Notes: generated by a model from the letters alone, not told the origin. A stretch of 64,000 bases of DNA from a virus (IMGVR_UViG_3300050491_000011), one strand, 5' to 3'; counted from the stretch's first letter, positions 18,705 through 42,603 are shown. Program-made: numbers and translations.

Positions 18705-18738
18705 CCGTAAATAGTTACTGGCATAGTGCTATCTTATG
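18705..18738 (+). promoter_or_regulatory. CCGTAAATAGTTAC-N16-TATG putative promoter
   Basis: one of three bipartite copies; TATG is the known phiKZ late-promoter core. Confidence 0.6.
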
Positions 18739-19345
18739 TGAACATTCGCACTAAGGACTTCGATTGGACATTCGTGTTCGTATCGCGGTGGCTCTTTGCG
18801 CGGTTCTTGCTTCGGTAGACTCGACGGCTAAACCTCCCGAGATTCGGGTGGCGCAGCCGTCGTACTACACTTCCTCAGATGAACAACTTACCAAGATGCA
18901 AGTCTTCTTGCAGGCGAGGGAGTTGGAACTCGAGAAGCGCGAATTCGACCCGTTCTTAAGTACCACGTTCTTCTGGGGAACGAAAGGGCTGAGTGGGACG
19001 ATTATTGAACCTCGCACCTGCAACCCTGCCAGCGTATACTCAGTCACAGGGCGTTGGACCCTGGTTAGGCATGAGAGAGACTCCCTGACACCTTTCGGGA
19101 CTTGAAAGATTTACCCACCCGACTGATAAGTGTAGATAGTCAAAAATCGATTCGGGATAACCGGTCAAAGAGGCTCCTGTGTGGAGCAAATGCCAACCCT
19201 GTCCTCCGATGCGCTCGGATCGCCAGATGGTAGATGTATCCGCCACCCCAAGAACTGAAGGCGCCGCCGTTCCAATGCCAGGGATACCTGGGTTTGAGTT
19301 CGGGGTGACCAATAGGTGAGGGGTGGCCATTTCTTTTCTTTATGC
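18738..19345 (+). ncRNA. candidate structured RNA A (whole segment, or only 19106-19345)
   Basis: follows palindrome+TATG; hairpins 18823-18861 and 18897-18912; GCCACCCC 19242-19249 pairs with 19320-19327 before a U-rich run. Confidence 0.4.
18764..19105 (+). CDS. uncertain ORF with signal-peptide-like N-terminus, inside structured segment A
   Basis: TTG start with AAGGA upstream; overlaps several hairpins. Confidence 0.35.
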   Translation: MDIRVRIAVALCAVLASVDSTAKPPEIRVAQPSYYTSSDEQLTKMQVFLQARELELEKREFDPFLSTTFFWGTKGLSGTIIEPRTCNPASVYSVTGRWTLVRHERDSLTPFGT

Positions 19346-19373
19346 CGCAAACATTTATTAAGGTGCCATCATC

Positions 19374-19886
19374 ATGACTACACCACGTTTAGGTGATCCA
19401 ATCATCTCGACAGATAAAGACGGTAAGGAACGACGTTCGTATGTAACGGTAAACCCAGATCGTCGTACAGCTCCTCACCGCCGTATGAAGAAAGACATCG
19501 CTGAGCAAGCCAAACTCCGCGAGGAACGTGAAGCTGCGGAATGTCTAGCGGAACCAATCCCAATGTTTGATGGGACCGCAGCAGCGGCTGCTTACGACCT
19601 AGCCGCTGAACATCTCGGCATTAGCCTCATGGGTACGAACATCCGCGTTCTCGATATGCTGGAATCGTATCAGCTCCACGTTGAGCGTAGTCATGACGGC
19701 CTCCTCAAGATCCCGTACTCCAAGGATGTTGATGAACTCATCCAGAACGGTGCCTTCAAGCCGTACATCGGTAAGCTGTACAACCATCCTATCGACTATG
19801 TCGGTAATGTCGGCATCGCCTTAATGGAAGCCTTACCCAACTCCGGGTTTATGGGGTCCGCAACAATCACCTTCGTCGCAACATAA
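19374..19886 (+). CDS. hypothetical protein
   Basis: AAGGT RBS, 170 aa. Confidence 0.75.
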   Translation: MTTPRLGDPIISTDKDGKERRSYVTVNPDRRTAPHRRMKKDIAEQAKLREEREAAECLAEPIPMFDGTAAAAAYDLAAEHLGISLMGTNIRVLDMLESYQLHVERSHDGLLKIPYSKDVDELIQNGAFKPYIGKLYNHPIDYVGNVGIALMEALPNSGFMGSATITFVAT

Positions 19887-19898
19887 GGAAACAACGGA

Positions 19899-20654
19899 AT
19901 GAATCTGGTAATCGAAGATGTAGTGTACAGTCACTTCAGACTGAAGCTTAATAAGTCGATCGACCTGGCTAAAATGTGGTCCTTCATTGTAAGTAATAAC
20001 CCAGGTCGTGAGAACACCTACCATAATACTCAACACATGAAACACATGGCAGCTATCGCCTGCTACCTGTTCGAGAACAGCGACGCGTACAAGGTGATGT
20101 CTCCGGCTGAACAGCACCTACAAACCAACCTGCTGTTGATTGCTTGCTGCTGGCATGATTACGGTCATAGTGCCGGTAAGACAACTGATGTCGAGAACAT
20201 CCGCGTGGCTAGCGATGCTTTCATGGAATGGTTCGAAACGAACTGGGTGTCGATGGTTCCTTACCTGATCGGAAAGAAAGTTACTGAAGGTAAGTCTGAA
20301 GACGAGCGTGAAGCAGCCAATCTGGCTATGATCGTACTCGACATCATTAAGGTCACTGAGTTCCCATTCGTTCATCGACCACACGGAACCCTTCAGATGT
20401 GTGCCCGTGATGCCGACCTTCTGTATACGTTCGATACCGATACCGGCAAGATCGTACACGGTCTGTACATGGAGCTGAAAAGCTCTGGCAAGTTCCCACA
20501 AGGCTTCTCGTTCATGAACTTCATGAATCGTCAGGCAGACTTCCTCGATAGTTGTGAACACTTCACACCGCTGGGTAAACAGATCCACGAAACCATGAAG
20601 GCCGATGTATTGGCCCGTCAGTTCGAGTGGGCTGAATCCCAAGGCTTCGCGTAA
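19899..20654 (+). CDS. HD-superfamily phosphohydrolase
   Basis: YHNTQH, WHDYGH and DADL metal-binding motifs. Confidence 0.85.
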   Translation: MNLVIEDVVYSHFRLKLNKSIDLAKMWSFIVSNNPGRENTYHNTQHMKHMAAIACYLFENSDAYKVMSPAEQHLQTNLLLIACCWHDYGHSAGKTTDVENIRVASDAFMEWFETNWVSMVPYLIGKKVTEGKSEDEREAANLAMIVLDIIKVTEFPFVHRPHGTLQMCARDADLLYTFDTDTGKIVHGLYMELKSSGKFPQGFSFMNFMNRQADFLDSCEHFTPLGKQIHETMKADVLARQFEWAESQGFA

Positions 20655-20715
20655 TAAGAAACCAACAATGGAGAGGGTATATCCCTCTCCCACTTATGCC
20701 CCTAGGAGTATCATC

Positions 20716-20991
20716 ATGTCCGTTAAACTTACCGAAGTATCTTTCTCTGTTTCTGTCGGCGCTGAAGGTCACGTTAACGTGACTCAAACCGTCATGACCC
20801 TCGTTCCTAGCCTGACGGCTGAACAGATCCACATCGACAAGCGTGTCTATGAAGACAATGACTCGATCGTCTACGATGATGACGAAGGCGACAAGAAGCC
20901 TAACGAGAATGGCGACATCATTCTCGAATACAAGAAGTACGGTAATGAGCAAGCCCACCCCATCCACATCACCGCAATCATCACTCACTGA
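20716..20991 (+). CDS. hypothetical acidic protein
   Basis: AGGAG RBS before ATG 20716 (track start 20605). Confidence 0.75.
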   Translation: MSVKLTEVSFSVSVGAEGHVNVTQTVMTLVPSLTAEQIHIDKRVYEDNDSIVYDDDEGDKKPNENGDIILEYKKYGNEQAHPIHITAIITH

Positions 20992-21004
20992 TAAGGAAAT
21001 CGCC

Positions 21005-21397
21005 ATGCCTGAAGTTCAAGAATACCCAAAGACTCAAGTACTGGTAAATCAACGTCTGGTACTGCCGGATGCATTCACCAACCCTGACGTCCACCTGTAC
21101 CTGCCAACCGATGCCATCGGCAACATGACCTGCCCGCTCAAGGCCGTTCGTATCGAGTGCTGGAAGCGTTCCACCGGTGAGCAGAAGCGCAGTGTACTGG
21201 CAGACATCTTCAGCAGCAATCGCTCCGGCCTGGCGTTCAGTCTGTTGAAGCATCAGTCAGAGCTCGAATTCGGCATGCTGACCATGAGCGTGGCCTTCGG
21301 TAGCCTGAAGGTTCTGAACGACTGGCTGCACACGCTGGAGCGCTTCCCAGCAGGTGACCTGAACCGCTTTGACGCCTACTACACTCCAGGCAAGTAA
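21005..21397 (+). CDS. hypothetical protein
   Basis: AAGGA RBS before ATG 21005 (track start 20843). Confidence 0.75.
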   Translation: MPEVQEYPKTQVLVNQRLVLPDAFTNPDVHLYLPTDAIGNMTCPLKAVRIECWKRSTGEQKRSVLADIFSSNRSGLAFSLLKHQSELEFGMLTMSVAFGSLKVLNDWLHTLERFPAGDLNRFDAYYTPGK

Positions 21398-21438
21398 CTA
21401 ACACGGGGGACTGATACTCCCCCGACTTTATTAAGGAA

Positions 21439-22512
21439 ATGATCGTGTCGAATAAACGCCCTCTCGTTTTATTTTCTGGTGGTTTGGATTCAACCTTCAA
21501 CATGCTTCGCCACACACTCGAAGGTGAGTCAGTTGATTACGTTTATATTGACGGTGGTCAAGGTAAGAATAAGGTCAATTCAGAGGAAGCGACTATCGAC
21601 CGTATTCTTACTGCCTTGCATGAACATGCTCGACGTAAGGAAAAGAGTGTCCATCATCGGTTCAGCACGCATCCTCTGTCGAAGGTTAACTTCTGCAATA
21701 CTCCTAGCGCCGGATGGCGTCAACCTATTCCTTGGCTGGTATCGGCTCTAGAGGTCGTAGATCCGGAGAAGCACTCGGTAGTTGAAGTGTCCTACGTTCA
21801 GGGCGATGAGATCATCAGTCGTATTCCTGAGCTTAAAGCTGCGTGGGCTGCAATGTGGTCAGTCACCAAGATCGGCGAACTCGTCCCACTGGAGTTCCCA
21901 CTCAAGGACATCAGTAAGCAAGCCATCCTCTGTCAGATGCCCGAAGAGATTTACAAGCTGACGTGGGTGTGTGAATTACCGATCATGCAGACGTTCGCTT
22001 GGCCAAAGAGCTGCATCGAATACGGCCGTAGCCATAACGCTCGCTGCCGTGCGTGTGAAACTCGTCTCGTTGAGCTGTATCGTTTCGAACTCCGTAACGG
22101 TAAAACTCTCGAGCAGTATCACATCGAATGCGCTGAGAAGATTGCTCGTGAAGAGCAGGGAGAGAAAGACCGTCTGCGTCGTCGACAGGAACGTATCGCT
22201 GAAGACATGGCCGATGGTTACAAGTCCGCCCTACCTCAGGATGGCGCGGTAGAGACCTTCACTCAAGACTTCTCGTTACTCGAGAAGGAAACATCGCCTA
22301 CGTTCGATCGTTTACCTAATCGCGGTGACTGGAAAGAACCAACTGTTCTGGCGGTTACTAATGCCGACGGTGAGCCGGGTGGATTCTACGTTACTGATGC
22401 AACCACGATGGACCAATTGATGGCGTACGCACACACGTCTGACTTTGAACTGATCAATGCGTGTGAAGAAATAGCAGACGCAATCAAAGACGAGAAAGCA
22501 TCAGCGGCTTAA
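21439..22512 (+). CDS. QueC-like PP-loop ATP pyrophosphatase
   Basis: LVLFSGGLDS PP-loop; C-terminal Cys cluster WVCE..C..CRAC. Confidence 0.75.
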   Translation: MIVSNKRPLVLFSGGLDSTFNMLRHTLEGESVDYVYIDGGQGKNKVNSEEATIDRILTALHEHARRKEKSVHHRFSTHPLSKVNFCNTPSAGWRQPIPWLVSALEVVDPEKHSVVEVSYVQGDEIISRIPELKAAWAAMWSVTKIGELVPLEFPLKDISKQAILCQMPEEIYKLTWVCELPIMQTFAWPKSCIEYGRSHNARCRACETRLVELYRFELRNGKTLEQYHIECAEKIAREEQGEKDRLRRRQERIAEDMADGYKSALPQDGAVETFTQDFSLLEKETSPTFDRLPNRGDWKEPTVLAVTNADGEPGGFYVTDATTMDQLMAYAHTSDFELINACEEIADAIKDEKASAA

Positions 22513-22515
22513 CGA

Positions 22516-22546
22516 CATAATGGCCGGGGATCTTCCCCGGCCTGTG
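22516..22546 (+). terminator. CATA-GGCCGGGG/CCCCGGCC hairpin
   Basis: after QueC-like gene. Confidence 0.65.
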
Positions 22547-22609
22547 TTTGTATCTTGTTACATTTGGGACACTAAGTATGTCCACATATTCCCTTTTAGG
22601 TCGTTCATT

Positions 22610-23434
22610 ATGTCCGTATTTTCTGATGGCGAGCTGATGGCTCGCAGCATTAAACCCGTGTACTTCAAGATCTGCCCAGACGCAGCTCCAGTACCTGTAA
22701 TTCCCGGTGTCACTCACAACAGCGCCGAGATGCTCCAGTTGTTGAATCTCAAGGACATCTATCCCGAGATGGTCGTCGAAGCAACTGACGAGATGCTCGA
22801 GGAGATGAAATGGAAGCCTCTCATCACGCCGTTCGTAGCTGACTCTGTCAAGTACATGTCGACAACGGCACCAAAGGAAACAGCCAAGCCTCAGGGTAGC
22901 AACTACGAAATGCCAGGTGGCTACATCGCATGGGACCAACGTATCCCAAGCTACGGCGTTTCCAGCTACGGTTACGATATCCGTCTGGCTGAGAAAGACA
23001 TCAAGATCTTCAGTAACATCAATTCGCCGATCATTGATCCGATGGATGTGTCTGAAGATTGCTACGTGCAAGCTGAGATCCGCACCTGCCCGAAGACTGG
23101 TCTGCGCTACTACATGCAGCCGCCTAACAGTCTGGCACTTGCTCACACTGCTGAGATCTTCAACATCAGCCGTGACATGCTGGTCGGTTGCTTCGGTAAG
23201 TCCACCTACGCTCGTGTAGGTCTGGTTCCAATGATCACCATCCTCGAACCCGAGTGGTCTGGTCAATTGGTTCTGGAACTGGCTAACCAAACCAACTCCC
23301 CGGTCAAGGTCTACATCGACTGCGGTATTGCTCAGCTCGTGTTCTGGAAAGCCTCTGAAGTCTGCCGCGTAAGCTACGCAGATCGTGGTGGTAAGTACAT
23401 GCACCAGCGTGGCACTGTTGGCGCTATCATTTAA
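22610..23434 (+). CDS. dcd: dCTP deaminase
   Basis: SYGVSSYGYDIRL, GKSTYARVG, EPEWSGQLVLELAN, GIAQLVF, YADRGGKYMHQ; likely ATG 22610. Confidence 0.95.
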   Translation: MSVFSDGELMARSIKPVYFKICPDAAPVPVIPGVTHNSAEMLQLLNLKDIYPEMVVEATDEMLEEMKWKPLITPFVADSVKYMSTTAPKETAKPQGSNYEMPGGYIAWDQRIPSYGVSSYGYDIRLAEKDIKIFSNINSPIIDPMDVSEDCYVQAEIRTCPKTGLRYYMQPPNSLALAHTAEIFNISRDMLVGCFGKSTYARVGLVPMITILEPEWSGQLVLELANQTNSPVKVYIDCGIAQLVFWKASEVCRVSYADRGGKYMHQRGTVGAII

Positions 23435-23443
23435 GGAGGCAAT

Positions 23444-23647
23444 ATGCAAGTTGTCATTCGCCTTCTTATTTTGTTCGTCGTGACAGTCCTGACTTACGCC
23501 GGCGGTGCATTCGTCGCAGCAGGTTGGAACATCGCTGAGTGGAACACTACGGCTAAGGGTGTGTTGGTACTCATCTGGTCTCTCAAGATGCTAGGTATCA
23601 TCATCTACTTTATCAGCGTTGATCGTCGGGATTGTCGCTGCCGATGA
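23444..23647 (+). CDS. two-TM membrane protein
   Basis: AGGAGG RBS. Confidence 0.75.
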   Translation: MQVVIRLLILFVVTVLTYAGGAFVAAGWNIAEWNTTAKGVLVLIWSLKMLGIIIYFISVDRRDCRCR

Positions 23648-23664
23648 GCATAAGGAAATGGGGT

Positions 23665-24300
23665 ATGGAACTTCAACGAATCGGTCTCAGAATCAGAAGT
23701 CTCCTTAAGCTCACACCACCACCCATTGAAGAGCCAATCGCAGAAGAACCGGTGGTGATCCGTCGCCCGCCTATTCTCCTGCGATTGGAGGATTGTGAGC
23801 GCGATCTGGAAACCATTCCTCAGTTCTTGGGGTATGGTTGGGCGTTTGGTAGTGATCATTACCTGACGACTGCGATCCATGATTCAGTACATGGTGCCAG
23901 CGCTAATGACCATCCGTTCAATGTTAGGACGGCGTCGTTTGAGATTGAGACCCTATCAGAGCTGCATGATAGCTTGACCATAACCGTCAAGGCGTCTCAG
24001 ATCGTCAGCAGCGAACATTACGTGTTCGACGGTCCTCTATTCGCGGCCATGTTCTTACCGAGCGGATACTCGATCTACGGTGAGTCCACGCTCAACGAGT
24101 TAGTGGGTGGTCCTTCGGTAGTTTACCTGAGGCTCATCCAGAAGATCGCCATGAAGCTCAGCTGTAGGATCAACACAATCGAGACGGCAAGAGATGGGGC
24201 TACCTTGATCATCTTTACGCCGTGGGACACCAGCAAGACATTCTTTGATCTCATCGACAAGGTAGACGATAGAACTACCGCACGCGATGCTGATAGCTAA
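23665..24300 (+). CDS. hypothetical protein
   Basis: AAGGA RBS before ATG 23665 (track start 23632). Confidence 0.7.
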   Translation: MELQRIGLRIRSLLKLTPPPIEEPIAEEPVVIRRPPILLRLEDCERDLETIPQFLGYGWAFGSDHYLTTAIHDSVHGASANDHPFNVRTASFEIETLSELHDSLTITVKASQIVSSEHYVFDGPLFAAMFLPSGYSIYGESTLNELVGGPSVVYLRLIQKIAMKLSCRINTIETARDGATLIIFTPWDTSKTFFDLIDKVDDRTTARDADS

Positions 24301-24349
24301 ATAAAGGCGAGTCCAACAATCGCCACTTGTCGTAATTAGGAGTATCACG

Positions 24350-25027
24350 ATGAATAAGAAGCCAGCCGCTAAAAGCAAGAATCTGTCTCTGGGGATTCCC
24401 GCTGTTTCCAATGGGGATGGGACGGACATTGCAAGCATTAACGCGACGGTGTTTCACATCCTGCGCAAGAAGAAGACCGCTGACGTTAGCACCTACGGGC
24501 TGCCTACCGTTAACGACGATGTCTTCAGCCGCAAGATTCGTCTGGTCAAGCTTCCAAAGAAAGATGCCCTCGGTCCAATCGAAGACATCCCGGATCTGGA
24601 AGATGTGCATCACACTGACCTGCCGTGGATTGGTCAAGCCACCTTCGGTACGGCCAGTCGCCAATTCCGCTCCAAGAACATCCTGGCATGCGCTGTGGAA
24701 GTCGTTCGTGAGATCGACGGCTATCTGTACCGCTTGACTGTAGCGATCGACGAGCCGAGCAATGAGCCGCTTGCACCGACGCTGGTTTACCTGAACCGCG
24801 CTACACCGCTGGATCGTGAACACACCCTCGTGGTGAATCGCGAGGTCACAGAGGCTGAGCGTGAGTTCTACATGAAGGACGCACCGCCTGTTCCATTGTC
24901 GCTGCTGAATAAGCTGTCGGCTCTGGGCTACGGTTGCACGGGCACAACCTTCCAGCTCCTCAACGACGCTCGTATGGGTACATCCATCCGTTGCGAACTG
25001 TACGGGAAAATCCTATTGGCGTCTTAA
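24350..25027 (+). CDS. hypothetical protein
   Basis: AGGAG RBS, 225 aa. Confidence 0.8.
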   Translation: MNKKPAAKSKNLSLGIPAVSNGDGTDIASINATVFHILRKKKTADVSTYGLPTVNDDVFSRKIRLVKLPKKDALGPIEDIPDLEDVHHTDLPWIGQATFGTASRQFRSKNILACAVEVVREIDGYLYRLTVAIDEPSNEPLAPTLVYLNRATPLDREHTLVVNREVTEAEREFYMKDAPPVPLSLLNKLSALGYGCTGTTFQLLNDARMGTSIRCELYGKILLAS

Positions 25028-25036
25028 GGAGGTAAC

Positions 25037-25540
25037 ATGTTCGGTATAGACATCAAGGGAGTGTTGAAGACTTACATGCCGCTGATCGTGGGCTTGATCT
25101 GTCTCGCTATCTTCCTGATGATTCGTTCAGCGTTTGTGGGGTACGTTGATAATGCAAAGGCACTCACTGAAGCTAAGGCTGCAACGGCGAATGTACTTGC
25201 AGTCAACGCAGGCCTTAATTCTGAGATCACGCGGCTTACGCAAGATGTCAAAGATCGCGCTGATACGAATCAGAACATTAACAAAGACCAAGTGGTCTTA
25301 GGGAAAAGTATTGATGAACTCAAATACGAACTCGACCTCGGAATCGCCGCTCGAGACGAAGCCGCAGTCAAGTATGAGTCGCAGTGCAAAGCCCCGGTTT
25401 CTACTACGGTTCCACGACCAAGGCCGATTGCAAATGGCGGGCTACATCAAGACGTGGAAGAGGTAGGGCTGACAATAGCATGGAAGGCTTACTGCAAAGT
25501 AACGCCTGATGCTACCCAGTGTCTGGAGAAAGATAAATGA
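25037..25540 (+). CDS. i-spanin (Rz-like)
   Basis: N-terminal TM, Ala-rich coiled coil, 2 Cys; overlaps a lipoprotein gene. Confidence 0.75.
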   Translation: MFGIDIKGVLKTYMPLIVGLICLAIFLMIRSAFVGYVDNAKALTEAKAATANVLAVNAGLNSEITRLTQDVKDRADTNQNINKDQVVLGKSIDELKYELDLGIAARDEAAVKYESQCKAPVSTTVPRPRPIANGGLHQDVEEVGLTIAWKAYCKVTPDATQCLEKDK

Positions 25541-25860
25541 TTCGATCACTCATCCTACTCATCGCAGCGCTTGTATTGACAGGCTGCGGACATCAACAGA
25601 TTGTGGAGAAGACAGTCACCAAATACGTTGCACTGGATGAAAGATGGTTTGCGCCATGTCCAATGGTAGAACCACCGAAGGTGTCTGTATACAACGCCAC
25701 TACACCGGCGGGAAAGTCAGACATGTGGGCTCGTAAGTATCTCGATCAAGCAGGCGTCAATGGCGACTGTAACATCAGACTCTATCAAGCCCTCCAGTAC
25801 CAACGCAAGAAAGCTGCCGAAACTACGACAGTGACATGTGTGGATGGGGTTTGCGAATAA
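25537..25860 (+). CDS. o-spanin (Rz1-like lipoprotein)
   Basis: lipobox LTGC, Pro-rich, further Cys; 4-nt overlap with i-spanin. Confidence 0.8.
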   Translation: MIRSLILLIAALVLTGCGHQQIVEKTVTKYVALDERWFAPCPMVEPPKVSVYNATTPAGKSDMWARKYLDQAGVNGDCNIRLYQALQYQRKKAAETTTVTCVDGVCE

Positions 25861-25892: not shown

Positions 25893-25911
25893 TCTGTTAA
25901 TCTCATTAAAC

Positions 25912-26277: not shown

Positions 26278-26280
26278 AAG

Positions 26281-27428: not shown

Positions 27429-27962
27429 ATGAAAAACCGTAACTTTATTACTAAGACCCCAATCAACACCAAGCGTCTGGTAACTGTTCTTGATGACACC
27501 TTCGGGATGGTCGGCTACAGTGTCGAGCGCAACATCGGCGATGCATTCGTGTACATCAAGGAACACGATTACTTCGTCCGCTTCAACTTCTTCACCGCTG
27601 ACTACAAGGACTACGCCACAGCGGCGCAGTACTTGGAGCTTCCCGTAATTACTAACTATCTGTACAACGATTATGTACAGCGGTTGGAATACGAGCAAGC
27701 AGTCAGCAATGCGCTCAGAGGTGCCATCAGCGAAGTCCAAATGGATCAGCTGCGTGTGTGTCTCGATAAGCTCGATAAGAACTTCGCTGGCGCTGACTTC
27801 GACGACTACGATCAAGTAGTCGAAAGCATCTACGCTATCAAGCGTCTGGCTGTAGTTGACTCAGTCGTTGGTGTGGGCGAAGCCTTCATCGATGATCGCA
27901 GCACTTACAACCCGGCTGTTCACTATTCGCTGAAAGTGATCCTGAGCTCCCGCCACTACTAA
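27429..27962 (+). CDS. hypothetical protein
   Basis: SD hairpin upstream. Confidence 0.8.
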   Translation: MKNRNFITKTPINTKRLVTVLDDTFGMVGYSVERNIGDAFVYIKEHDYFVRFNFFTADYKDYATAAQYLELPVITNYLYNDYVQRLEYEQAVSNALRGAISEVQMDQLRVCLDKLDKNFAGADFDDYDQVVESIYAIKRLAVVDSVVGVGEAFIDDRSTYNPAVHYSLKVILSSRHY

Positions 27963-34625: not shown

Positions 34626-35962
34626 GGAACCCATCGATGTCCAGCACTACTTCCATTGCGTTCTCCACCGTCAACCGTTACGCGCCTCAAGCGGCTTACC
34701 TGGTCGGCAATCCTGTCAGCGTACTTCCTGACGAGATCACTGCTGCAAACTTGGCTGAACATTTCTGCCACCGGAAAGATACATTGCACGAACGTATCTT
34801 CGATGCTTCCCAAGAGAACCGTCTGCAATTCGTCATTACCCACACGGTAAGCCAGTCTGCTAACTCGACCCTGGTTTACCACCTGTTCGGGTATTCCGAT
34901 CACGACGGTAACCCTGAACTCCTGTCCGATGACATGAAGCTCTATTTCAGCCGGGCGGTCACAATCCGTTCTACGCTGATCCGCGACATCACCGGTTGCC
35001 GAACCATCTCCAACGTGGTAGAAGATGCACTGCTGACGCAGGGCTGGATGGAAGGCGCTCGGGTTCTACGTCCTAGCGACATCTTCCAGAATCTGGGTTC
35101 CGAGGCGGCTTTCAGTGCGTTCATCACGCCCGGTATGAAATGCATCAACCTGTCTGGCGCTTTCAATAAGAATCAGGTGAAGATGATGCACACGAGTAAC
35201 GAGAGTCCTGCTCGTTATATCAAGACCATCTCTGATGCACTTCACGGTGCTATCAAAGACTGCATCGCTGATCCGATAGAAATGAAAGACGACTATCTGT
35301 TCAGCGCGGCGATGGATCGTACCTGCGAACCTTCGCTCATGCACCACTGGTTCCTCAGTGAATTGGTGCGTTCAACCAAGTTCGAATTCGACGGGTTCGT
35401 AACTCTCGGCGACTTCAAGCAAGTGTTTGAACCTGAAACGGTATCGGCGATGATCACCGAGTCTGTTGATCGTACAGACCTCACCCCGTGGACTGGCTCG
35501 GTAGAATCTTATCTGGCCAACCTTCTGATCAATACCGTCAACGCGAGCATGACTGACTACGGTTACATGTCTGTTCGCGTTGACGGGGTAATCGGTAAGG
35601 TTACAACGGCAGCGCTAAACGGTTCCAGCATGCTGGATAAGAATACGTTCGATGATCTCATTCCTGAGTTCGATATCAAACGTCCTCCGTTTGTCAGTAT
35701 CGTGAAGAACGATCTGAAGGCCTTCGTGTGGAATCCAGCAGATGCGGAAATCCAGTTCAACGTGAAAGTCGATATCGCAGGCGTTGCTACAGTCAGCATT
35801 AAAGTCGGCGAAGAAGCACCTCAGATCTTCGAACGTCCGATGTACATGGTCGGTATGTTGTCCGGTCAGTGGGCGGTTGATGAATCTCTTATCGATCGCA
35901 CTCGTTCGTACTTCAAGGACGCTATCAGTGTTCTGACCAGTCGGGCAATCGTTCAGCAGTAA
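34622..35962 (+). CDS. hypothetical protein (446 aa; alternative ATG 34637)
   Basis: long ORF ending at bidirectional terminator. Confidence 0.85.
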   Translation: MRNPSMSSTTSIAFSTVNRYAPQAAYLVGNPVSVLPDEITAANLAEHFCHRKDTLHERIFDASQENRLQFVITHTVSQSANSTLVYHLFGYSDHDGNPELLSDDMKLYFSRAVTIRSTLIRDITGCRTISNVVEDALLTQGWMEGARVLRPSDIFQNLGSEAAFSAFITPGMKCINLSGAFNKNQVKMMHTSNESPARYIKTISDALHGAIKDCIADPIEMKDDYLFSAAMDRTCEPSLMHHWFLSELVRSTKFEFDGFVTLGDFKQVFEPETVSAMITESVDRTDLTPWTGSVESYLANLLINTVNASMTDYGYMSVRVDGVIGKVTTAALNGSSMLDKNTFDDLIPEFDIKRPPFVSIVKNDLKAFVWNPADAEIQFNVKVDIAGVATVSIKVGEEAPQIFERPMYMVGMLSGQWAVDESLIDRTRSYFKDAISVLTSRAIVQQ

Positions 35963-35966
35963 GCGG

Positions 35967-36014
35967 CATAAGTACCCACTCCTTCGGGAGTGGGTACTGT
36001 CACTTCTTTTTTTT
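35967..36014. terminator. terminator between convergent genes
   Basis: 12-bp stem AGTACCCACTCC/GGAGTGGGTACT, spacer, T8. Confidence 0.85.
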
Positions 36015-36330
36015 AGAGTTCTTCTTCCGGAATGTCCACCATCGACACCGTCTGACCAGCCAGCTCGTGAGTGCAGTCATTGAGGAATTCCCACTGACCG
36101 TTACGAATAAAGCTGTGGCAAACAACGGCTTCCGTGCAGAACTTATTGAACTGAACCATAATGCTCGGAGAGTAAGTCGGCATATTGACGTTACCGTCCC
36201 ACTGCCATTGCTGACCGCTCCCACTTGGCTTATCGATTGCGATGTGATGCATCCACTTACAGCCTGGGCAATAGAGCCCGTGCATATGTCCAGCAAAGAG
36301 TTCGATCTTTGGTGAAAGTAATTCACTCAT
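36013..36330 (-). CDS. small Cys/His metal-binding protein, DUF6527-like
   Basis: CPGCKWMH, PTYSPSI, CHSFIRNGQWEFLNDCTHELAGQ. Confidence 0.7.
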   Translation of the reverse strand: MSELLSPKIELFAGHMHGLYCPGCKWMHHIAIDKPSGSGQQWQWDGNVNMPTYSPSIMVQFNKFCTEAVVCHSFIRNGQWEFLNDCTHELAGQTVSMVDIPEEEL

Positions 36331-36366
36331 GATTTGTATGTCCTATAGAACCGTTGGGGAACTAAC

Positions 36367-37209
36367 ATGTTGGCCGTGATAATCAAAGGTAATCCTAAGT
36401 TCATCAATACAGCATTAGCGAGAACGTACTACTCCGACATCGAGAAGTATCTCAAAGCCCTCGGCTATAAGGTTGAATTCGATGAGGGTAATGACTACAC
36501 CAGACCCCGACAAGATGCTGATCTGTACGTCGCACACTCCCGCGGTGTCGGACGTTACGAGTTCATGGAAGAGAGGAATAAATCGAAGTTCGTGAAGCTT
36601 GGTAGTCTGGACGGTGCAATCGATCCAGTCGATCGTAAGTGGCAGGAAGAAGTCTGGCATCCGGGCATCAAGACGCCACCGCCGCATGAACACTTCATCT
36701 TCACCGACATCCAGAAAGATGCGATCCTTCAAGTAGGCGGCGTTTCGATTGATTCGCTCAAGAAGGTAAATGGTCTATCCAGTACTCTTAGTCCAGATCT
36801 TCGAAGACTCGTAGAGCTGGCGATGAAGGACCCTTACCTCGGGACGCCTGCATTGAAGAGCAACATGGAGAACATCACACCTCTCCTCTATAAAGGTCGC
36901 ACCGTTGGTTTCGCCGTTCCGTTCCGTGAGAGCGACGGTTACTGGCGTACTGGTTCTATCTATATAGAACCCGCATTCCGGCGTAAAGGGATTGCTCACG
37001 AATGGATTGAATCCTTCATGGAAGGTAAAGCTGGACGTGCGTGGATCGATCCACGTAACGCATCGAGCATCGCAGCTTACACTGCGGCAGGCTTTACCAA
37101 GTCAGGGCGGCATGTCAAATCCCCGATCTCAGGTAATTGGTTTGATGAGTATCTAACCGAAGAAGCCGGCATGGAAAGTGCACCACCTAAGACCTTATTG
37201 ACCTGGTGA
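36367..37209 (+). CDS. alpha/beta-hydrolase-like domain fused to a GNAT acetyltransferase
   Basis: YVAHSRG elbow; IYIEPAFRRKGIA acetyl-CoA motif A; N..S.A.Y...GF motif B. Confidence 0.75.
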   Translation: MLAVIIKGNPKFINTALARTYYSDIEKYLKALGYKVEFDEGNDYTRPRQDADLYVAHSRGVGRYEFMEERNKSKFVKLGSLDGAIDPVDRKWQEEVWHPGIKTPPPHEHFIFTDIQKDAILQVGGVSIDSLKKVNGLSSTLSPDLRRLVELAMKDPYLGTPALKSNMENITPLLYKGRTVGFAVPFRESDGYWRTGSIYIEPAFRRKGIAHEWIESFMEGKAGRAWIDPRNASSIAAYTAAGFTKSGRHVKSPISGNWFDEYLTEEAGMESAPPKTLLTW

Positions 37210-37223
37210 TCACTATTATATAT

Positions 37224-37490
37224 GTACTAGGCTGCTTCGGGCTGATGAAGCCAAGTATCATGCTAGGTGGGCTCACACGCTCCTCCACCTAGCCACTGAG
37301 GTCGGGACGCTCTCCTCGACCTAGGCGTTGATGTTCGCGGGTTCGTCAACGTCTTGTTAGGTACTCAGTACTTAGCCGTTTGTTCAGGGTATTGCGAGAG
37401 CGCGCCTTGAGCAAACGGATAGCTACTGCGCCCCTGTGTGTTATCGGTATTCTCCCCACCCACTGGATTCGTCTGGTGGGTGGGGTTTAT
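37224..37490 (+). ncRNA. candidate structured ncRNA B (about 265 nt)
   Basis: no ORF >=60 aa on either strand; TATG at 37221; five consecutive hairpins, loop-loop complement, terminal hairpin 37454-37485. Confidence 0.65.
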
Positions 37491-37500
37491 GCTGCGTTAA

Positions 37501-37522
37501 TAAACCGCAGTCACACATTACC
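37501..37522 (+). promoter_or_regulatory. putative early promoter (AGTCACACATT)
   Basis: recurrent motif. Confidence 0.5.
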
Positions 37523-37554
37523 ATTTTAGATACACCAACCAAAGGAGAAGTTCC

Positions 37555-37947
37555 ATGACTCACATGCTGAACATCACGCTGGATAAGAACGATCGCGATA
37601 AACACTTCACCACTTACAAAGGTCGTAAGATCTACATCTCACCTCTTGCCGATAGTCGCGATAAGCCAGCCGCACCTGTCATCGCATTCAAAGGTCTTCT
37701 AGAAGGACATCTGACCGTCCACATGGTTAAGACTTTTGACGGATACACTGACGAGTATCGACACACAATCCACAGTGGCGATTATAAGGGATACGTCTTC
37801 GTACTCGACCACGGATTCAAGATCAGCGTAGAAGAATTCAATAAGCGCTTCTATCCACATTACTACAAAGAAGATGGCGATAGAATCTGGCGCTGTCCTA
37901 CACGTAGTTTAGACGAAGCGTGGGAGCATTCAGAAGAATACATTTAA
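37555..37947 (+). CDS. hypothetical protein
   Basis: AGGAG RBS after CACACAT motif. Confidence 0.75.
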   Translation: MTHMLNITLDKNDRDKHFTTYKGRKIYISPLADSRDKPAAPVIAFKGLLEGHLTVHMVKTFDGYTDEYRHTIHSGDYKGYVFVLDHGFKISVEEFNKRFYPHYYKEDGDRIWRCPTRSLDEAWEHSEEYI

Positions 37948-37952
37948 ATCGT

Positions 37953-38040
37953 AGTCAAATTAATTACAGTCACACATAGCGAGAGTACATACACACAACG
38001 ATATCCATTCCGGATACGTTAAACGACCGTGGAGGTCAAC
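37953..38040 (+). repeat. promoter-leader module, copy 1
   Basis: 25-bp exact match AGTCAAATTAATTACAGTCACACAT with 59207-59231, plus shared AACGATATC..GATACGTT hairpin and SD hairpin. Confidence 0.85.
38025..38037 (+). promoter_or_regulatory. SD hairpin GACC-GTGGA-GGTC
   Basis: ATG 38041. Confidence 0.8.
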
Positions 38041-38433
38041 ATGTCTGCAATCACTATCGCTACTATCGAAGCCACCCTGCGTGCAGTACTGACCGCTCCA
38101 GAAGGCGCTCAGGTAATTACCTTCTCTCAAGGTGCTCTCGATCAGATGAATGAAGTAACCGACGTCATCATCACTGCCACCGGCTACGATGAAACCAAGG
38201 TTACTGAAGAAGAGCTGATGATCGCTGCTGCCTTCGCCAACCACTTCACCAAAGACGCAGTTACCGGCGAGGTAGTGGATGGCGTTATCCAGCCATCGCC
38301 TGAAGTAGAGTTCCGTGCCGAAGTTGTTCGGGTGAAAGAACTCTACAGTCTGGGTAGCGAGATGCACGGCGTAGCTCTGCCTGTAGTCCTGCTTTGCAAA
38401 GTGTTCAATTCCCTGACTCACTTCACTCGCTAA
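38041..38433 (+). CDS. hypothetical protein, tandem paralog of 38460-38846
   Basis: SD hairpin; MS.IT.A.IE..LR.V.TAP.GA. Confidence 0.85.
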   Translation: MSAITIATIEATLRAVLTAPEGAQVITFSQGALDQMNEVTDVIITATGYDETKVTEEELMIAAAFANHFTKDAVTGEVVDGVIQPSPEVEFRAEVVRVKELYSLGSEMHGVALPVVLLCKVFNSLTHFTR

Positions 38434-38443
38434 TCAAACCAAC

Positions 38444-38456
38444 GACCGAGGAGGTC
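38444..38456 (+). promoter_or_regulatory. SD hairpin GACC-GAGGA-GGTC
   Basis: ATG 38460. Confidence 0.8.
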
Positions 38457-38459
38457 AAC

Positions 38460-38846
38460 ATGAGCAATATCACTGTAGCTCTTATCGAAGAGCAGCTTCG
38501 CAATGTTATCACCGCTCCTACTGGGGCTCACTTGATCGTCATCCCGGAAGCTTCGTTGAAGCAACTCCAGCAGGTGAGTGATGCGTTTGTTGAGGCTAGC
38601 AACCTCGACCTCAACAACGTTTCCGATGACGCATTGCAAGCCGCCTGGATGGCTGCTGAGATGTACAGCAAGAATCACATCACCGGTGAGATCGTTGCCG
38701 GTGAGTTGATCACTTACAATCAGGAAGCATTGGACAAGAACCTCAAGTCCATTCGTGAGAACCCTGACTTCGTCAATGAAGGCTTGGCTCTCACCATCTA
38801 CCTGCTGAACAAGATCTTCGCCGAAGTCAAACAATTCCGTCGTTAA
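38460..38846 (+). CDS. hypothetical protein, tandem paralog of 38041-38433
   Basis: SD hairpin; aligns with paralog over full length. Confidence 0.85.
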   Translation: MSNITVALIEEQLRNVITAPTGAHLIVIPEASLKQLQQVSDAFVEASNLDLNNVSDDALQAAWMAAEMYSKNHITGEIVAGELITYNQEALDKNLKSIRENPDFVNEGLALTIYLLNKIFAEVKQFRR

Positions 38847-38856
38847 GGAGATTGAG

Positions 38857-39177
38857 ATGCGCTGGGTAGAAGTCCATGGATTAACGATCGCTGCTGTCAT
38901 GGTGATTATCGCATCACTGATACTCATCGGCATGGTGCTTTACAAATACAGCCGCTATAACGATGAGACTCACGAATACTGGGAACGGGTTATCAAGAAG
39001 ACTATCAATCAGATTGATAAGCTCTCCCAGAAGAAAGGGTACAGGCTCAAGCCAGCTGATTCAGCAATGATCATCTGGGCTGGGCATCACTGTACCGTGA
39101 AGAACTTCCGCAAGGAAGAGCTGGAAACGTATTTCATTCAATTGAAAGACGTGCTACACTCGATTGAGAAACACTAG
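38857..39177 (+). CDS. membrane-anchored protein
   Basis: AGGAG RBS; N-terminal TM. Confidence 0.75.
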   Translation: MRWVEVHGLTIAAVMVIIASLILIGMVLYKYSRYNDETHEYWERVIKKTINQIDKLSQKKGYRLKPADSAMIIWAGHHCTVKNFRKEELETYFIQLKDVLHSIEKH

Positions 39178-39187
39178 ACCACCTATC

Positions 39188-39200
39188 GCCCGAGGAGGGC
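39188..39200 (+). promoter_or_regulatory. SD hairpin GCCC-GAGGA-GGGC (compensatory variant)
   Basis: ATG 39207. Confidence 0.8.
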
Positions 39201-39206
39201 AACATC

Positions 39207-39653
39207 ATGTTCTGCGCAACCCGTAATGAAGTAGCACTGACCAAGAAACGTTTTGAAGCTAAAACTCAAGACGACTTCACGGCCGGCATGTACACCATCG
39301 CGACTAAGCTGAACAAGTTCGCCGATTTCGCAATGTTCGATTCGTCTCACAACAATGACGGCATTCGGATGACTTTCTTTGTAGAGAATGCAAAAGGCGA
39401 GGAAATCGTTAAAGGGATCTACCGCAAGTGGGCTCAGCTTCTGGCTAGCTCAATGCCAACCGGTGGCGTGAAGCGCAAGATGTACGCTACGACTCAAATC
39501 GCCGTACGTCAAATGCGTCACCCGTACGCGGAAGGTCGTGATGTCCCAGTCTGGGTTTGGGAGATCTCTACCGGGTACGAACCTCGCACCAACGTTGGTA
39601 CAGTCTACGAGCTATTGAAGACTGCTATCGAATACGTTGAGAAGCATCATTAA
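39207..39653 (+). CDS. hypothetical protein
   Basis: SD hairpin variant GCCC/GGGC. Confidence 0.8.
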   Translation: MFCATRNEVALTKKRFEAKTQDDFTAGMYTIATKLNKFADFAMFDSSHNNDGIRMTFFVENAKGEEIVKGIYRKWAQLLASSMPTGGVKRKMYATTQIAVRQMRHPYAEGRDVPVWVWEISTGYEPRTNVGTVYELLKTAIEYVEKHH

Positions 39654-39711
39654 TTGAAACCCAGGCGGGGTTCCTCCCCGCCAACCTCATTTCTTATTTA
39701 GGAGCTTCACC

Positions 39712-40422
39712 ATGACTGCTACAAATAACGCTGTACGGGTAATGGCTGCACTGGTTGAATCCGGTGGTCGTTACATCGATGGTCACAACAACCAGACGAC
39801 CGCCGTCAAGTACGCTGCAATCTTCAAGCGTCCTGACATGGAAGACATGGTTGTACCTCTCCTCACCAACACTTACTTCTCCTTGAGCGCCATCGAGGTC
39901 AATGAGGATGGTGTACTCCGCATGTCTCCGTGGTCTGTCGGCGGTGTAGTCGATAGCCGTGGTCTGACCATGGAACAAACTATCGCTGCTTTCAACGAGT
40001 CCTACAAGACCAGCTCTCTGGTAGAGCTTACCGAGTTCGAAGCGAAGCCTGAGCCTAAGGAAGAGAAACCTTTCTTCCTGCGCCGTGAAGCTTTCTACAG
40101 TGGCAACACTGAAGGTGAGACTCACGATGCTGAAGGTACGATCTTCTACCGTAACTCTTACCACAACACCATCAGCGACAAGCCGGCTGTTGACTGGCAG
40201 ATCGCACGCGCCACTGGGTTGAAACCGAACGACGTCTATGTTCGTGAGTACACCGAAGAAGGCAAGATCCGCAACTACGTTCACCTGCCGGTGATGGAGA
40301 AGCTGATCGAGTACAGCGACTTCTGCAACGCCAACGGTATCCAGTGCGCCGAGATCCGTAATCTGGATGCTATCAAAGCGGCCATCGCTCAGTTCTATCA
40401 GCTGCGCGGCATCATCTGCTAA
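39712..40422 (+). CDS. hypothetical protein
   Basis: AGGAG RBS. Confidence 0.8.
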   Translation: MTATNNAVRVMAALVESGGRYIDGHNNQTTAVKYAAIFKRPDMEDMVVPLLTNTYFSLSAIEVNEDGVLRMSPWSVGGVVDSRGLTMEQTIAAFNESYKTSSLVELTEFEAKPEPKEEKPFFLRREAFYSGNTEGETHDAEGTIFYRNSYHNTISDKPAVDWQIARATGLKPNDVYVREYTEEGKIRNYVHLPVMEKLIEYSDFCNANGIQCAEIRNLDAIKAAIAQFYQLRGIIC

Positions 40423-40425
40423 TTA

Positions 40426-40459
40426 GGGTGGGGACTTCGGTCCCCATTCTTTTTTTTTG
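40426..40459 (+). terminator. intrinsic terminator
   Basis: GGGGAC-TTCG-GTCCCC + T9. Confidence 0.85.
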
Positions 40460-40466
40460 TCGTAAT

Positions 40467-40501
40467 CCGTAATTAGTTACAGATGGCGATGTACTACTAT
40501 G
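40467..40501 (+). promoter_or_regulatory. CCGTAATTAGTTAC-N17-TATG putative promoter
   Basis: bipartite copy. Confidence 0.6.
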
Positions 40502-40827
40502 TAGAAACACCCTCGTTGATTAGTCAACGCCCAGTTGATACACCTAGCTCTTTTACAATTTGGGTCTCCCTGCCGATAGTCTTGAGTACGGTGCCAATAC
40601 GGTCACGCTCTTGCTTCCCTCGCATAGACAACTCGCTTAGCTGGTATAAAGCCCAGCAAACCCCTAGCGGTCTGACAGAGTCTGATCGCGTTCCCTAAGA
40701 GTTTGGAATAGTACCAGTACAGTACGGGTTCAATCGCCGCGATTGCTTTAGTACTCGAACAAACGTGCCGGGCCTTTCGGAGCATCCCGTAAGAAATATA
40801 AAGCCCGGCCTCGCGCCGGGCTTTATG
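40501..40827 (+). ncRNA. candidate structured RNA C / attenuator-like leader
   Basis: palindrome+TATG promoter; hairpins 40514-40529, 40640-40657, 40732-40744; terminator 40798-40826. Confidence 0.45.
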
Positions 40828-40910
40828 CTGCATGCGTAATAAAAGAAAACAGAGTCTTATATTGTACACTTGAATCTATACCGCCCCTAATACCCGCACG
40901 GAGCATCAAC

Positions 40911-41708
40911 ATGTCTGCCTACCTGTCGCAACAAGATCAAATCAAAGTCAACATTCTGGAAGGCTACGCTCCTCGCAAGCTTACCAATGTGGAAGTCATC
41001 ATCAACGAGATCCGTCTGTTCGATTGGACCTATCCTGATAGTGACTGCCCTAAGGCCTACAGGGCTGGCGCTGAGCGTAAAGAAGTTCTGCGTAGCGCTA
41101 TCTCCTACACGCTTGGCGATAACCCGTCTCTCGCTACTCTGGCGCGTGCTGCGCTGGAAGGTCAACAGGCCCGTAACGATCTGTTTGACAAATACCCGTA
41201 CGTCAAGCACTTCGATCTGATGAATGCCAAGCACCACAAAGGTCTGCTCGGTTGTCATCTGGCTGGTATTGAAGAACATCGTGTCCGTGGAGCCATCAGC
41301 TTCCTCAAAGACCTCTACGACGTCGTTGTAGCGCTTCCAGCGAACAAGAGCAACGTATTCATCTCCACCAATAGAACGCCGATGTATCGCGAGCTGAGAG
41401 CCATTGCTACCAACTCCAAGGTTCCGGCTCTCTTCGGTATGGCGATCCCGGCTCCGCTTCAGAAGCAGGTCTATGAACTCCTGCGTATCAACACGTATAC
41501 GCTCGACACCATCCAGACGTACAGCCTGCACTGCACCGACGAAATGATGGATTACTACAAGAACCATCCGAGCGCCAAAGAAGCTTTCCGCGTCTTCAAT
41601 ATGTTTGAAGTCGTTAACTGCCCTTACGTGCAGGATGCGAAGTATCTTCAGGTCATCATGAATGATCGGTACTACTCGTTCTACGTCAAGCGTAATCAAT
41701 TCGTGTAA
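40911..41708 (+). CDS. hypothetical protein
   Basis: GGAG RBS, 265 aa. Confidence 0.8.
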   Translation: MSAYLSQQDQIKVNILEGYAPRKLTNVEVIINEIRLFDWTYPDSDCPKAYRAGAERKEVLRSAISYTLGDNPSLATLARAALEGQQARNDLFDKYPYVKHFDLMNAKHHKGLLGCHLAGIEEHRVRGAISFLKDLYDVVVALPANKSNVFISTNRTPMYRELRAIATNSKVPALFGMAIPAPLQKQVYELLRINTYTLDTIQTYSLHCTDEMMDYYKNHPSAKEAFRVFNMFEVVNCPYVQDAKYLQVIMNDRYYSFYVKRNQFV

Positions 41709-41710
41709 CT

Positions 41711-41751
41711 AGGTGGGAGGCTTCGGCCTCCTGCCCCTCCTTCTTTTTTTT
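41711..41751 (+). terminator. intrinsic terminator with displaced T run
   Basis: GGAGGC-TTCG-GCCTCC, spacer, T8. Confidence 0.75.
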
Positions 41752-41753
41752 GG

Positions 41754-42569
41754 GTGATTTCCGTGAGCGATATTAAAGTCATGGTTAGCGGTGCAGTGGG
41801 CGTTGGTAAGAGTCACGTATTGGCGGTCATTGAGCGAGCCTTGAATGAGGCTTACGGAGATACCATCAAGATCGAATGTGAGGACACTGAGAGCGAGCGT
41901 CGATCTATCGGTGAAGACATCCGTGAGTGGCAGCAGCCTACGGTTGAGAAGATCATTCTAACGCCGTATACGGCGTGGCGTCGAGAAGAGATCGTTGAGG
42001 ATGGCGACGTACCTGCCCTCGATTACTTTAGTGAGTGGACGACAGGTCGGGTAAGTGAAGTAGTCCCTGCTAATCTGTCTCCGTCTGAAGTCAGCGATAT
42101 GGTTAAAGCTTTCGATGAACTGTATCCTCCGTTCAAGCCTCGGTACGAATCGCTGAATGGTCGGATCATTCGGATGGATGAAGGTCATCCAACTGCGGCT
42201 AAAGCAGCTCTCGCCAAACTGGCTGAGTCTGCGAACTTACTGCACGTCGAAATGTTCATGCCGGGTGATACCAACCAGATGATCGGGCTGGGTTACATGA
42301 ATGACGCCAACCTCGCAGTGCAGTACGCGAACCTTATTAAAGGCATGGTCTTCGATATGGCATTCGTTGAACCGTACTTCGGTGATCAGGAAAAGGTCAC
42401 TACGTTCCGTAATGTAGAAGTCCAGTCTGCGATGACTCAAAAGAATGACGGTAAGACTTCAGCGTCCGTTGGATTCAAAGTCGGTAAGATGCGCGTCCAC
42501 CTTCGGAATAAGCACGACAACGATCCATTGCAGTTCGGCATTCCTCTTGGCGTTACCGAGGAAAGCTAA
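41754..42569 (+). CDS. hypothetical protein with N-terminal P-loop-like motif
   Basis: GAVGVGKS near N-terminus. Confidence 0.7.
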   Translation: MISVSDIKVMVSGAVGVGKSHVLAVIERALNEAYGDTIKIECEDTESERRSIGEDIREWQQPTVEKIILTPYTAWRREEIVEDGDVPALDYFSEWTTGRVSEVVPANLSPSEVSDMVKAFDELYPPFKPRYESLNGRIIRMDEGHPTAAKAALAKLAESANLLHVEMFMPGDTNQMIGLGYMNDANLAVQYANLIKGMVFDMAFVEPYFGDQEKVTTFRNVEVQSAMTQKNDGKTSASVGFKVGKMRVHLRNKHDNDPLQFGIPLGVTEES

Positions 42570-42570
42570 T

Positions 42571-42603
42571 CCGTAATTAATTACGGGTGATGGAATCAGT
42601 ATG
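42571..42603 (+). promoter_or_regulatory. CCGTAATTAATTACGG (perfect palindrome)...TATG putative promoter
   Basis: bipartite copy, 15-nt spacer after TTAC. Confidence 0.65.

Follow-up and report, generated by a model that had tools for sequence, protein, structure and literature searches.

The 64,000-nt window analysed here, that is, the whole stretch of DNA under study, corresponds to bases 97179-161178 of a 188-kb single-contig virus record (IMGVR_UViG_3300050491_000011, called here G000; 51% G+C) and carries three copies of a candidate promoter element in which a conserved box precedes the tetranucleotide TATG. The consensus is TCCGTAAwwArTTAC, 15-17 nt, then TATG, with boxes at 18705, 40467 and 42571. 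The first, CCGTAAATAGTTAC (18705-18718), is separated by a 16-nt spacer from the TATG at 18735-18738; the second, CCGTAATTAGTTAC (40467-40480), by a 17-nt spacer from that at 40498-40501; and the third, CCGTAATTAATTAC (42571-42584), by a 15-nt spacer from that at 42600-42603. A perfect 16-bp palindrome spans 42571-42586 in this last copy. A previous reading made from the DNA alone (the sequence-only reading) had given these three positions, spacers of 16, 17 and 15 nt and the palindrome, all of which were confirmed, and had placed each copy after a gene end or terminator and before a structured, ORF-poor segment (ORF, open reading frame). This placement holds as well, as a stop codon or an intrinsic terminator lies immediately 5' of each box and an ORF-free stretch of ~608, 330 and 190 nt, respectively, follows and closes with a hairpin and TTTATG. 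The features of the three sites are listed below.

18703-18718, + strand: box A, TTCCGTAAATAGTTAC, candidate upstream element of a middle-type promoter, 2 nt past the stop codon of a 271-aa gene (17886-18701)
18735-18738, + strand: initiator A, TATG, predicted start at G 18738
18738-19345, + strand: segment A, structured non-coding RNA of ~608 nt, with a GCCACCCC/GGGGTGGC long-range stem (~19241-19329), a T-rich run and TTTATG (TATG 19341-19344)
40425-40458, + strand: intrinsic terminator of the upstream gene, hairpin (40425-40450) and T9, 8 nt ahead of box 2
40465-40480, + strand: box 2, ATCCGTAATTAGTTAC, found by pattern match and present in five relatives
40498-40501, + strand: initiator 2, TATG, predicted start at G 40501
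40501-40835, + strand: RNA 2, structured non-coding RNA of ~330 nt, ending with a hairpin (40798-40826) then TTTATG (TATG 40824-40827), a phiKZ-type terminator motif
42569-42586, + strand: box 3, ATCCGTAATTAATTACGG, overlapping the stop codon of gene 41754-42569
42600-42603, + strand: initiator 3, TATG, predicted start at G 42603
42603-42796, + strand: RNA 3, structured non-coding RNA of ~190 nt, closed by a terminator hairpin (42749-42780) followed by a T-run and TTTATG (TATG 42793-42796)

When up to two mismatches to the box pattern were tolerated, seven matches were obtained in the window compared to 0.67 expected, and none of 100 shuffles reached seven. A complete relative was found in IMG/VR (G001, 253,921 bp, ~90% protein identity) and four metagenome contigs were also recovered, while no match to the regions was returned by blastn among 50,697 phage records. 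Box A is kept in G001 with a single change, in the outer C, and identity with G001 amounts to 95% from this box to TATG compared to 77-79% in the flanks. At the second site, the spacer between box and TATG varies from 15 to 17 nt among the orthologous copies of that single site.

Over the whole genome, six intergenic boxes were detected, all on the + strand and all conserved in G001, with TATG, TATAG or GATG 15-17 nt downstream. The three that lie outside the window, and one look-alike within it, are the following.

Outside the window, + strand: tRNA-operon box, TCCGTAAAAAGTTACGGA, 15 nt, GATG, 110 nt upstream of the tRNA-Asn/Ser operon
Outside the window, + strand: chimallin-leader box, GCGTAAAAAGTTAC, 15 nt, TATAG, with two early-type motifs downstream
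Outside the window, + strand: protein-gene box, TTAAAAAGTTACC, 15 nt, TATAG, intergenic between ribonucleotide reductase and a divergently oriented 224-aa gene
27643-27675, + strand: in-ORF box look-alike, CCGTAATTACTAAC, 15 nt, TATG, inside a 177-aa ORF (27429-27962)

The genome-wide scan shows that the box is not scattered in ORFs: one in-ORF look-alike accompanies the six intergenic copies. The box and TATG of this look-alike are conserved in G001 and its spacer differs; it is possibly an internal promoter, possibly a coincidence arising from coding conservation. The exact box pattern was matched only seven times in IMG/VR, four of these matches being located in jumbo-phage contigs of 250-270 kb. 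Beyond the boxed sites, the generic arrangement TTAC-N14-17-TATG was not enriched (14 matches vs 16 in the reversed control), so that the class is defined by the full box. As to the initiator, TATG/CATA is the second most under-represented tetramer genome-wide, after CTAG (observed/expected 0.555). TATG is enriched between genes, and within genes 95 antisense-strand copies were counted vs 245 sense-strand copies. This depletion suggests selection against stray initiators, antisense above all, and fits a live initiator.

The gene content indicates that the phage is an uncultured chimallivirus (phiKZ-like), since it encodes chimallin, an RNA polymerase (RNAP) beta subunit and a phiKZ-like helicase. 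Searches by tblastn with a partial chimallin and by BLASTP against the OBP chimallin returned no match, and profile searches then identified the chimallin gene (PF25677, 38.3 bits vs a 27-bit cut-off; phrog_4795, 1e-34). The RNAP beta subunit gene (phrog_2987) is located downstream of chimallin, which is also flanked by a divergent virion structural protein gene, and the large helicase has its best similarity to helicases of phiKZ-like jumbo phages. With chimallin and an RNAP beta subunit gene identified, the phage belongs with those that possess virion and non-virion multisubunit RNAPs together with chimallin. The sequencing runs listed as containing its DNA are soil and rhizosphere metagenomes, and no RNA run is among them.

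Middle promoters of phiKZ carry the motif 5'-AAanTTACc-3' centred at about -24, and two of them, P62M and P78M, also have a correctly placed TATG (Yakunina 2015, PMC4666361; these two promoters go back to Ceyssens 2014, as cited via PMC4666361). The boxes of the present phage read AAAGTTACg, ATAGTTACt, TTAGTTACa and TTAATTACg and end with AAAGTTAC, ATAGTTAC, TTAGTTAC or TTAATTAC; counted from the G of TATG, TATAG or GATG as the presumed start, the C of TTAC stands at -19 to -21. Relative to this predicted start, the boxes therefore present the AAanTTACc motif at about -24. Scanning phiKZ with the box architecture recovered AAAATTACC-N13-TATG, 76 nt upstream of gene 78, which corresponds in sequence and register to P78M as published. 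The architecture was likewise found ahead of the phiKZ tRNA-Leu, tRNA-Asp, tRNA-Asn and tRNA-Thr, and the G of one copy, at 270596, falls 1 nt from a published 5' end of a non-coding RNA (ncRNA), at 270595. The phiKZ tRNA/ncRNA region, 1.3% of the search space, holds 6 of the 33 matches of that genome (P ~4e-6). In 201phi2-1, tRNA-Leu and the non-virion RNAP (nvRNAP) genes gp129/gp130 have been reported to be under middle promoters (PMC11512511). Here again, GTAAAAAATTACC-N14-TATG lies just upstream of gp129 and is the only strict GTAA-N4-TTAC-N14-18-TATG match of the genome, and a one-mismatch copy, GTAAAAGAATACC-N16-TATG, is found 89 nt upstream of tRNA-Leu. The architecture is thus shared with experimentally assigned middle promoters of two cultured phages.

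Motif and register therefore match those of P78M, of the 201phi2-1 sites and of the phiKZ tRNA sites. From the motif as observed, with its statistics, conservation and geometry and the agreement with published promoters, we conclude that the box and TATG are very probably this phage's form, longer and better conserved, of the chimallivirus middle-class promoter. The sequence-only reading had proposed an extended promoter class dedicated to ncRNA genes, of which the promoter class stands in kind and the dedication does not: the class, with AAanTTACc at about -24, is already known, and it is biased towards RNA genes (four of the six boxes in this genome precede such genes) without being dedicated to ncRNA. 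A dedication to ncRNA genes is rejected because the box is also found at the chimallin leader and ahead of the 224-aa protein gene, whereas an ncRNA candidate of the window, RNA B (37221-37490), has no box upstream; in 201phi2-1, moreover, the nvRNAP genes are boxed. RNA B itself is ORF-free and structured, begins with TATATATG and closes with a hairpin and TTTATG.

Several points weigh against the assignment to the middle class. The match rests on the motif as quoted in the published text, on P78M and on gene-level statements, and the start site, the timing and the polymerase proposed for this phage follow from analogy. TATAG or GATG replaces TATG at three of the six sites. The class is also small, with six sites per 254 kb, whereas 201phi2-1 and phiKZ are reported to have 13-33; weaker middle promoters of this phage may differ in appearance, or the boxes may represent a subclass. 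Finally, the box shares the frame GTnA-N4-TTAC with the early -10 motif GTnAyACATTAC, and its use by the virion polymerase is for that reason formally conceivable.

The segments downstream of the three boxes are, from folding and comparative analyses, non-coding, conserved and structured RNAs. In segment A, a 113-aa ORF is not coding, as substitutions are distributed 25/25/22 by codon position and a stop codon interrupts it in G001. The two-sequence consensus fold with G001 comprises 163 pairs, none of which is broken at 79% identity and 9 of which are compensatory; 30 of the 131 variable columns are paired, a deficit given that 53% of columns pair, and the alifold z-score is -3.4. This segment was not found in the three other jumbo genomes examined. 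RNA 2, compared over six sequences, shows four covarying pairs, frame-breaking indels and an alifold z-score of -5.1. Its terminator hairpin (40798-40826), A-rich on one side and T-rich on the other, also scores as a minus-strand terminator and may act bidirectionally. RNA 3 has a single-sequence fold z-score of -4.55 and a fold of -70.8 kcal/mol in the sense orientation vs -49.1 kcal/mol in antisense; among its 60 pairs, 9-12 survive a one-sided change (mostly via G-U), 1 is compensatory and 2-3 are broken. At gathering score, Rfam 15 matched nothing in the window, and a permissive search (E up to 10) of the three segments gave chance-level matches only.

The ends of these RNAs agree with the proposed limits of transcription. 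In segment A, RNA 2, RNA 3 and the leader of the tRNA operon, the first helix begins at the predicted +1 G, which may be taken as indirect support, from folding models, for the predicted start site. At the other end, the hairpin-TTTATG arrangement matches the phiKZ terminator motif (hairpin then TTAT), and k-mer enrichment anchored on TATG recovered mainly terminator hairpins directly upstream of TTTATG. The tRNA-operon leader (79 nt; G000 88900-88978, just before the window; G001 L003:1533-1611) forms a single closed hairpin from the predicted +1 to 5 nt before tRNA-Asn (z -3.98); this hairpin could function as a processing stem or represent an independent small RNA (sRNA), similar to the sRNA derived from a 5' untranslated region that has been described directly upstream of a 201phi2-1 tRNA (PMC11512511). 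It should be noted that the tRNA-Ser(GCT) predicted by ARAGORN in this operon (76 nt, G000 89072-89147, outside the window) does not have the long variable arm that a bacterial serine tRNA would be expected to have; in the window, ARAGORN found neither tRNA nor tmRNA.

The genome also contains promoter motifs of the early type, TAAAwwwTTAyAGnyAyACATwr, in about 14 copies that are all in + sense. A motif scan located, in the window, three of them that include AATTAATTAC.

4289-4310, + strand: early-type promoter motif with AATTAATTAC
37958-37979, + strand: early-type promoter motif with AATTAATTAC
59212-59233, + strand: early-type promoter motif with AATTAATTAC

The half-sites that had been noticed ahead of putative early promoters do exist, at 4289, 37958 and 59212, and are the -20/-30 part of ordinary early-class members. 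Chimallivirus early promoters, used by the virion RNAP and made of A/T-rich blocks at -10, -20 and -30, resemble the box at two places, as both have TTAC near -20 and an A/T-rich block near -30. The box could then be a variant early promoter of the injected virion polymerase, starting ~7-9 nt past TTAC, with TATG as an independent late promoter, the tandem providing expression throughout infection. This would suit the shared GTnA-N4-TTAC frame and the presence of AATTAATTAC in three early-type promoters, and an early need for tRNAs and chimallin is plausible. However, the boxes have TATG at the start in place of the early -10 block AyACATTA (about 7-9 nt before the start), and the early-specific AyACAT is absent from every box. 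In addition, the box-TATG distance is kept even between distant genera, phiKZ P78M included, the helices of the RNAs start at the G of TATG and not upstream, and the chimallin leader has genuine early motifs separately, downstream of its box. We thus regard an early promoter as very improbable and retain the middle-class assignment.

The TATG itself corresponds, as the sequence-only reading had correctly stated, to the core of phiKZ late promoters read by the nvRNAP; it is bound there by the beta-like gp123 (PMC4666361, PMC12809450). A plain late promoter of the phiKZ type, which has no upstream element, was nevertheless rejected for these sites, as a strongly conserved box stands beside TATG and three sister sites have no exact TATG. 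In phiKZ, insertion of the middle motif into a late promoter cut its activity threefold (PMC4666361). The 15-17 nt between TTAC and TATG also superficially recall the -35/-10 pair of a host sigma-70 promoter, TTAC and TATGTn standing for a poor -35 and a poor -10, respectively. A scan for TTGACA, 16-18 nt and TATAAT with at least 9 of 12 matches flagged none of the three window sites, however; the conserved GTAA, TTAC and G of TATG are not sigma-70 consensus bases, and phiKZ-like phages transcribe without host RNAP (PMC10612078). A host promoter is accordingly rejected and has, in our estimation, almost no chance of being correct.

The chimallin leader offers a comparison of the middle-type promoter across phages. 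A box with the same spacing to TATGTAAA is present in the chimallin leader of OBP, AH04, Kc263, N1M2, pEt-SU, SXP01 and Sureiya and of three IMG/VR jumbo genomes, and in each of them it lies upstream of an apparent early promoter. The order in phiKZ is a middle-type TATG at 45490, hairpins, the early motif TATATTAC and gp54. In the present phage, the leader (G000 12184-12650, outside the window) consists of box and initiator, hairpin, one or two early-type promoters and chimallin, a layout shared from phiKZ to OBP-like phages. To judge from these arrangements, chimallin would be served by two promoter classes in series.

These sites further reveal that the box is symmetric. Among 24 compiled sites, a set in which several chimallin-locus sites were picked by eye (hence a bias) and orthologous sites are non-independent, the four inner arm positions (GTAA/TTAC) are complementary in 88-100%, and on average 5.75 of eight positions are complementary about the true centre, falling to 0.75-2.96 when the centre is slid. 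The arms differ between genera and yet remain complementary around a centre near -24: CTATCAGTAA/TTACTGATAG in OBP, TTCATTAA/TTAATGAA in Kc263 and TGTAATTAA/TTAATCACA in pEt-SU. Between genera, G:C at arm position 4 is replaced by T:A, as is C:G at position 5 by A:T, with complementarity kept. The OBP chimallin-leader box (L026:1973-1996) is a perfect 10-bp inverted repeat, CTATCAGTAA-TTTT-TTACTGATAG, and a second OBP box, before OBP_227 (215950-215992), has different arms that are again complementary, TTGTAA/TTACAA. In the literature searched, we found no description of arm symmetry in the middle promoter. What may be new here is therefore that the element appears as an inverted repeat, GTAA-N4-TTAC, centred near -24, the arms of which covary between genera at the chimallin locus.

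Such symmetry could be required at the level of nucleic-acid structure: the promoter DNA might form a hairpin or cruciform of the kind known from early promoters of phage N4, or read-through transcripts might form a hairpin that directs processing at UAU|G. The arms that differ and stay complementary between genera and between the OBP sites (CAGTAA/TTACTG vs TTGTAA/TTACAA) and the perfect 10-bp repeat of OBP are what such a structure would produce, and processing has been named as an alternative source of middle transcripts (Antonova 2023, PMC10612078). The covariation of the N4-type comparison is seen between genera, whereas the copies within the present genome share the left arm TCCGTAA and differ in the outer right arm without compensation, a pattern which fits a protein-read consensus better than a hairpin. 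The stems would also be weak, with 4-7 A/T-rich pairs; little read-through RNA is expected at two sites, given their position behind strong terminators or in divergent intergenic regions; and the middle-class 5' ends of phiKZ and 201phi2-1 were scored as primary by cap-dependent sequencing. We consider a structural role of the palindrome very unlikely.

The inverted repeat might instead be the site of a dedicated dimeric phage DNA-binding protein, an nvRNAP-recruiting activator or a repressor/timer, in which case this protein, and not the polymerase, would define the class. Purified phiKZ nvRNAP does not use middle promoters (PMC4666361), and a DNA- or RNAP-binding factor has been called for in their recognition (Antonova 2023, PMC10612078). 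The complementarity of the arms, its sharp fall when the centre is slid and the compensatory changes at positions 4 and 5 would be accounted for by a dimer, and a constant left arm beside a degenerate outer right arm is expected of a protein-read consensus half-site. On the other hand, no candidate protein emerged, phiKZ lacks the palindrome at its chimallin-leader site and at most of its tRNA sites, the flanks are asymmetric (the left TCCG has no mirror on the right) and the eye-picked chimallin-locus sites bias the symmetry count. In addition, in the solved phiKZ nvRNAP-promoter complex, the C-terminal domain of the sigma-like gp68 contacts the backbone at -18 to -23, a stretch that coincides with the right half of the box, and the polymerase could thus read the element directly. 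We hold a dedicated dimeric protein to be a serious possibility that nevertheless falls short of being probable. It would refine the middle-promoter explanation more than exclude it, and the dimeric factor imagined in the earlier reading gains some support from the symmetry of the repeat. We tentatively propose, as a conjecture with rather more chances of failing than of holding, that the chimallivirus -24 element is an inverted repeat kept symmetric by compensatory changes and that a dimeric phage protein is the missing middle factor giving the nvRNAP access to tRNA, ncRNA and chimallin promoters.

Under the middle-promoter assignment, each site would consist of an upstream element covering about -32 to -19, the core of which, GTAA-wwAr-TTAC, contains the phiKZ AAanTTACc near -24, and of a late-type TATG initiator, the G of which would be the transcription start. 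Transcription would be carried out by the multisubunit RNAP of the phage inside the phage nucleus, most probably, by analogy with phiKZ, by the non-virion enzyme aided by an added factor that reads the upstream element. In the working model that we consider most likely, a phage factor, possibly dimeric, binds the box and brings the nvRNAP to start at the G; this model is adopted because the purified enzyme ignores middle promoters and because an extra DNA- or RNAP-binding factor is expected in the field. Start site, timing, polymerase and factor are all inferred in it by analogy. The targets of the six strong copies would be the tRNA/tRNA-like operon, the three structured ncRNAs, one protein gene and the chimallin leader. 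In the window, the three transcripts would end at the phiKZ-type hairpin-TTTATG terminator, the TATG of which could also act as an independent late promoter ahead of the next gene.

This lineage and the cultured OBP-, AH04- and Kc263-like phages would thus possess long, conserved and symmetric middle promoters at fixed places (chimallin leader, tRNA operon, ncRNA genes). As the factor that recognises phiKZ middle promoters is still sought (PMC4666361, PMC10612078), these sites provide concrete baits and mutational targets, and the near-perfect copies of this lineage and of OBP-like phages would be ideal baits if the factor is dimeric. Three conserved structured RNAs also gain predicted promoters, likely 5' ends and terminators, and chimalliviruses appear to have a tendency to put RNA genes under the middle-promoter class.

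Compared to known systems, the present sites are close to the middle promoters of phiKZ, a phage that likewise has a chimallin nucleus and two multisubunit RNAPs. P78M and P62M share with them an A/T-rich element ending in TTAC(c) near -24 and the G of TATG in the same start register (AAAATTACC-N13-TATG in P78M, wArTTACn-N14-16-TATG at the window sites). Relative to phiKZ middle promoters, the elements described here are longer, owing to the TCCGTAA on the left, better conserved between copies, partly palindromic and present in six copies that lie mostly before RNA genes; their start sites and timing are predicted from sequence. The middle promoters of 201phi2-1 similarly have a GTAA-N4-(T/A)TAC(C) box 14-16 nt ahead of TATG and a tRNA with a structured leader, whereas the middle class of that phage also serves polymerase and structural genes, the assignment of its published promoters to exact sequences being our own. 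The phiKZ late promoters have TATG at -3 to +1, as here, but lack a conserved upstream element, and three of our six sites depart from the exact TATG. Lastly, the short RNAs of phiKZ and 201phi2-1 (Putzeys 2024; PMC11512511) follow the same plan as those of the window, with a promoter, a hairpin-TTAT(G) terminator within 0.1-0.6 kb and a gene beyond; the three RNAs described here differ from them in lacking detectable sequence relatives beyond their own lineage and any Rfam family, and one of them, at ~600 nt, is unusually long.

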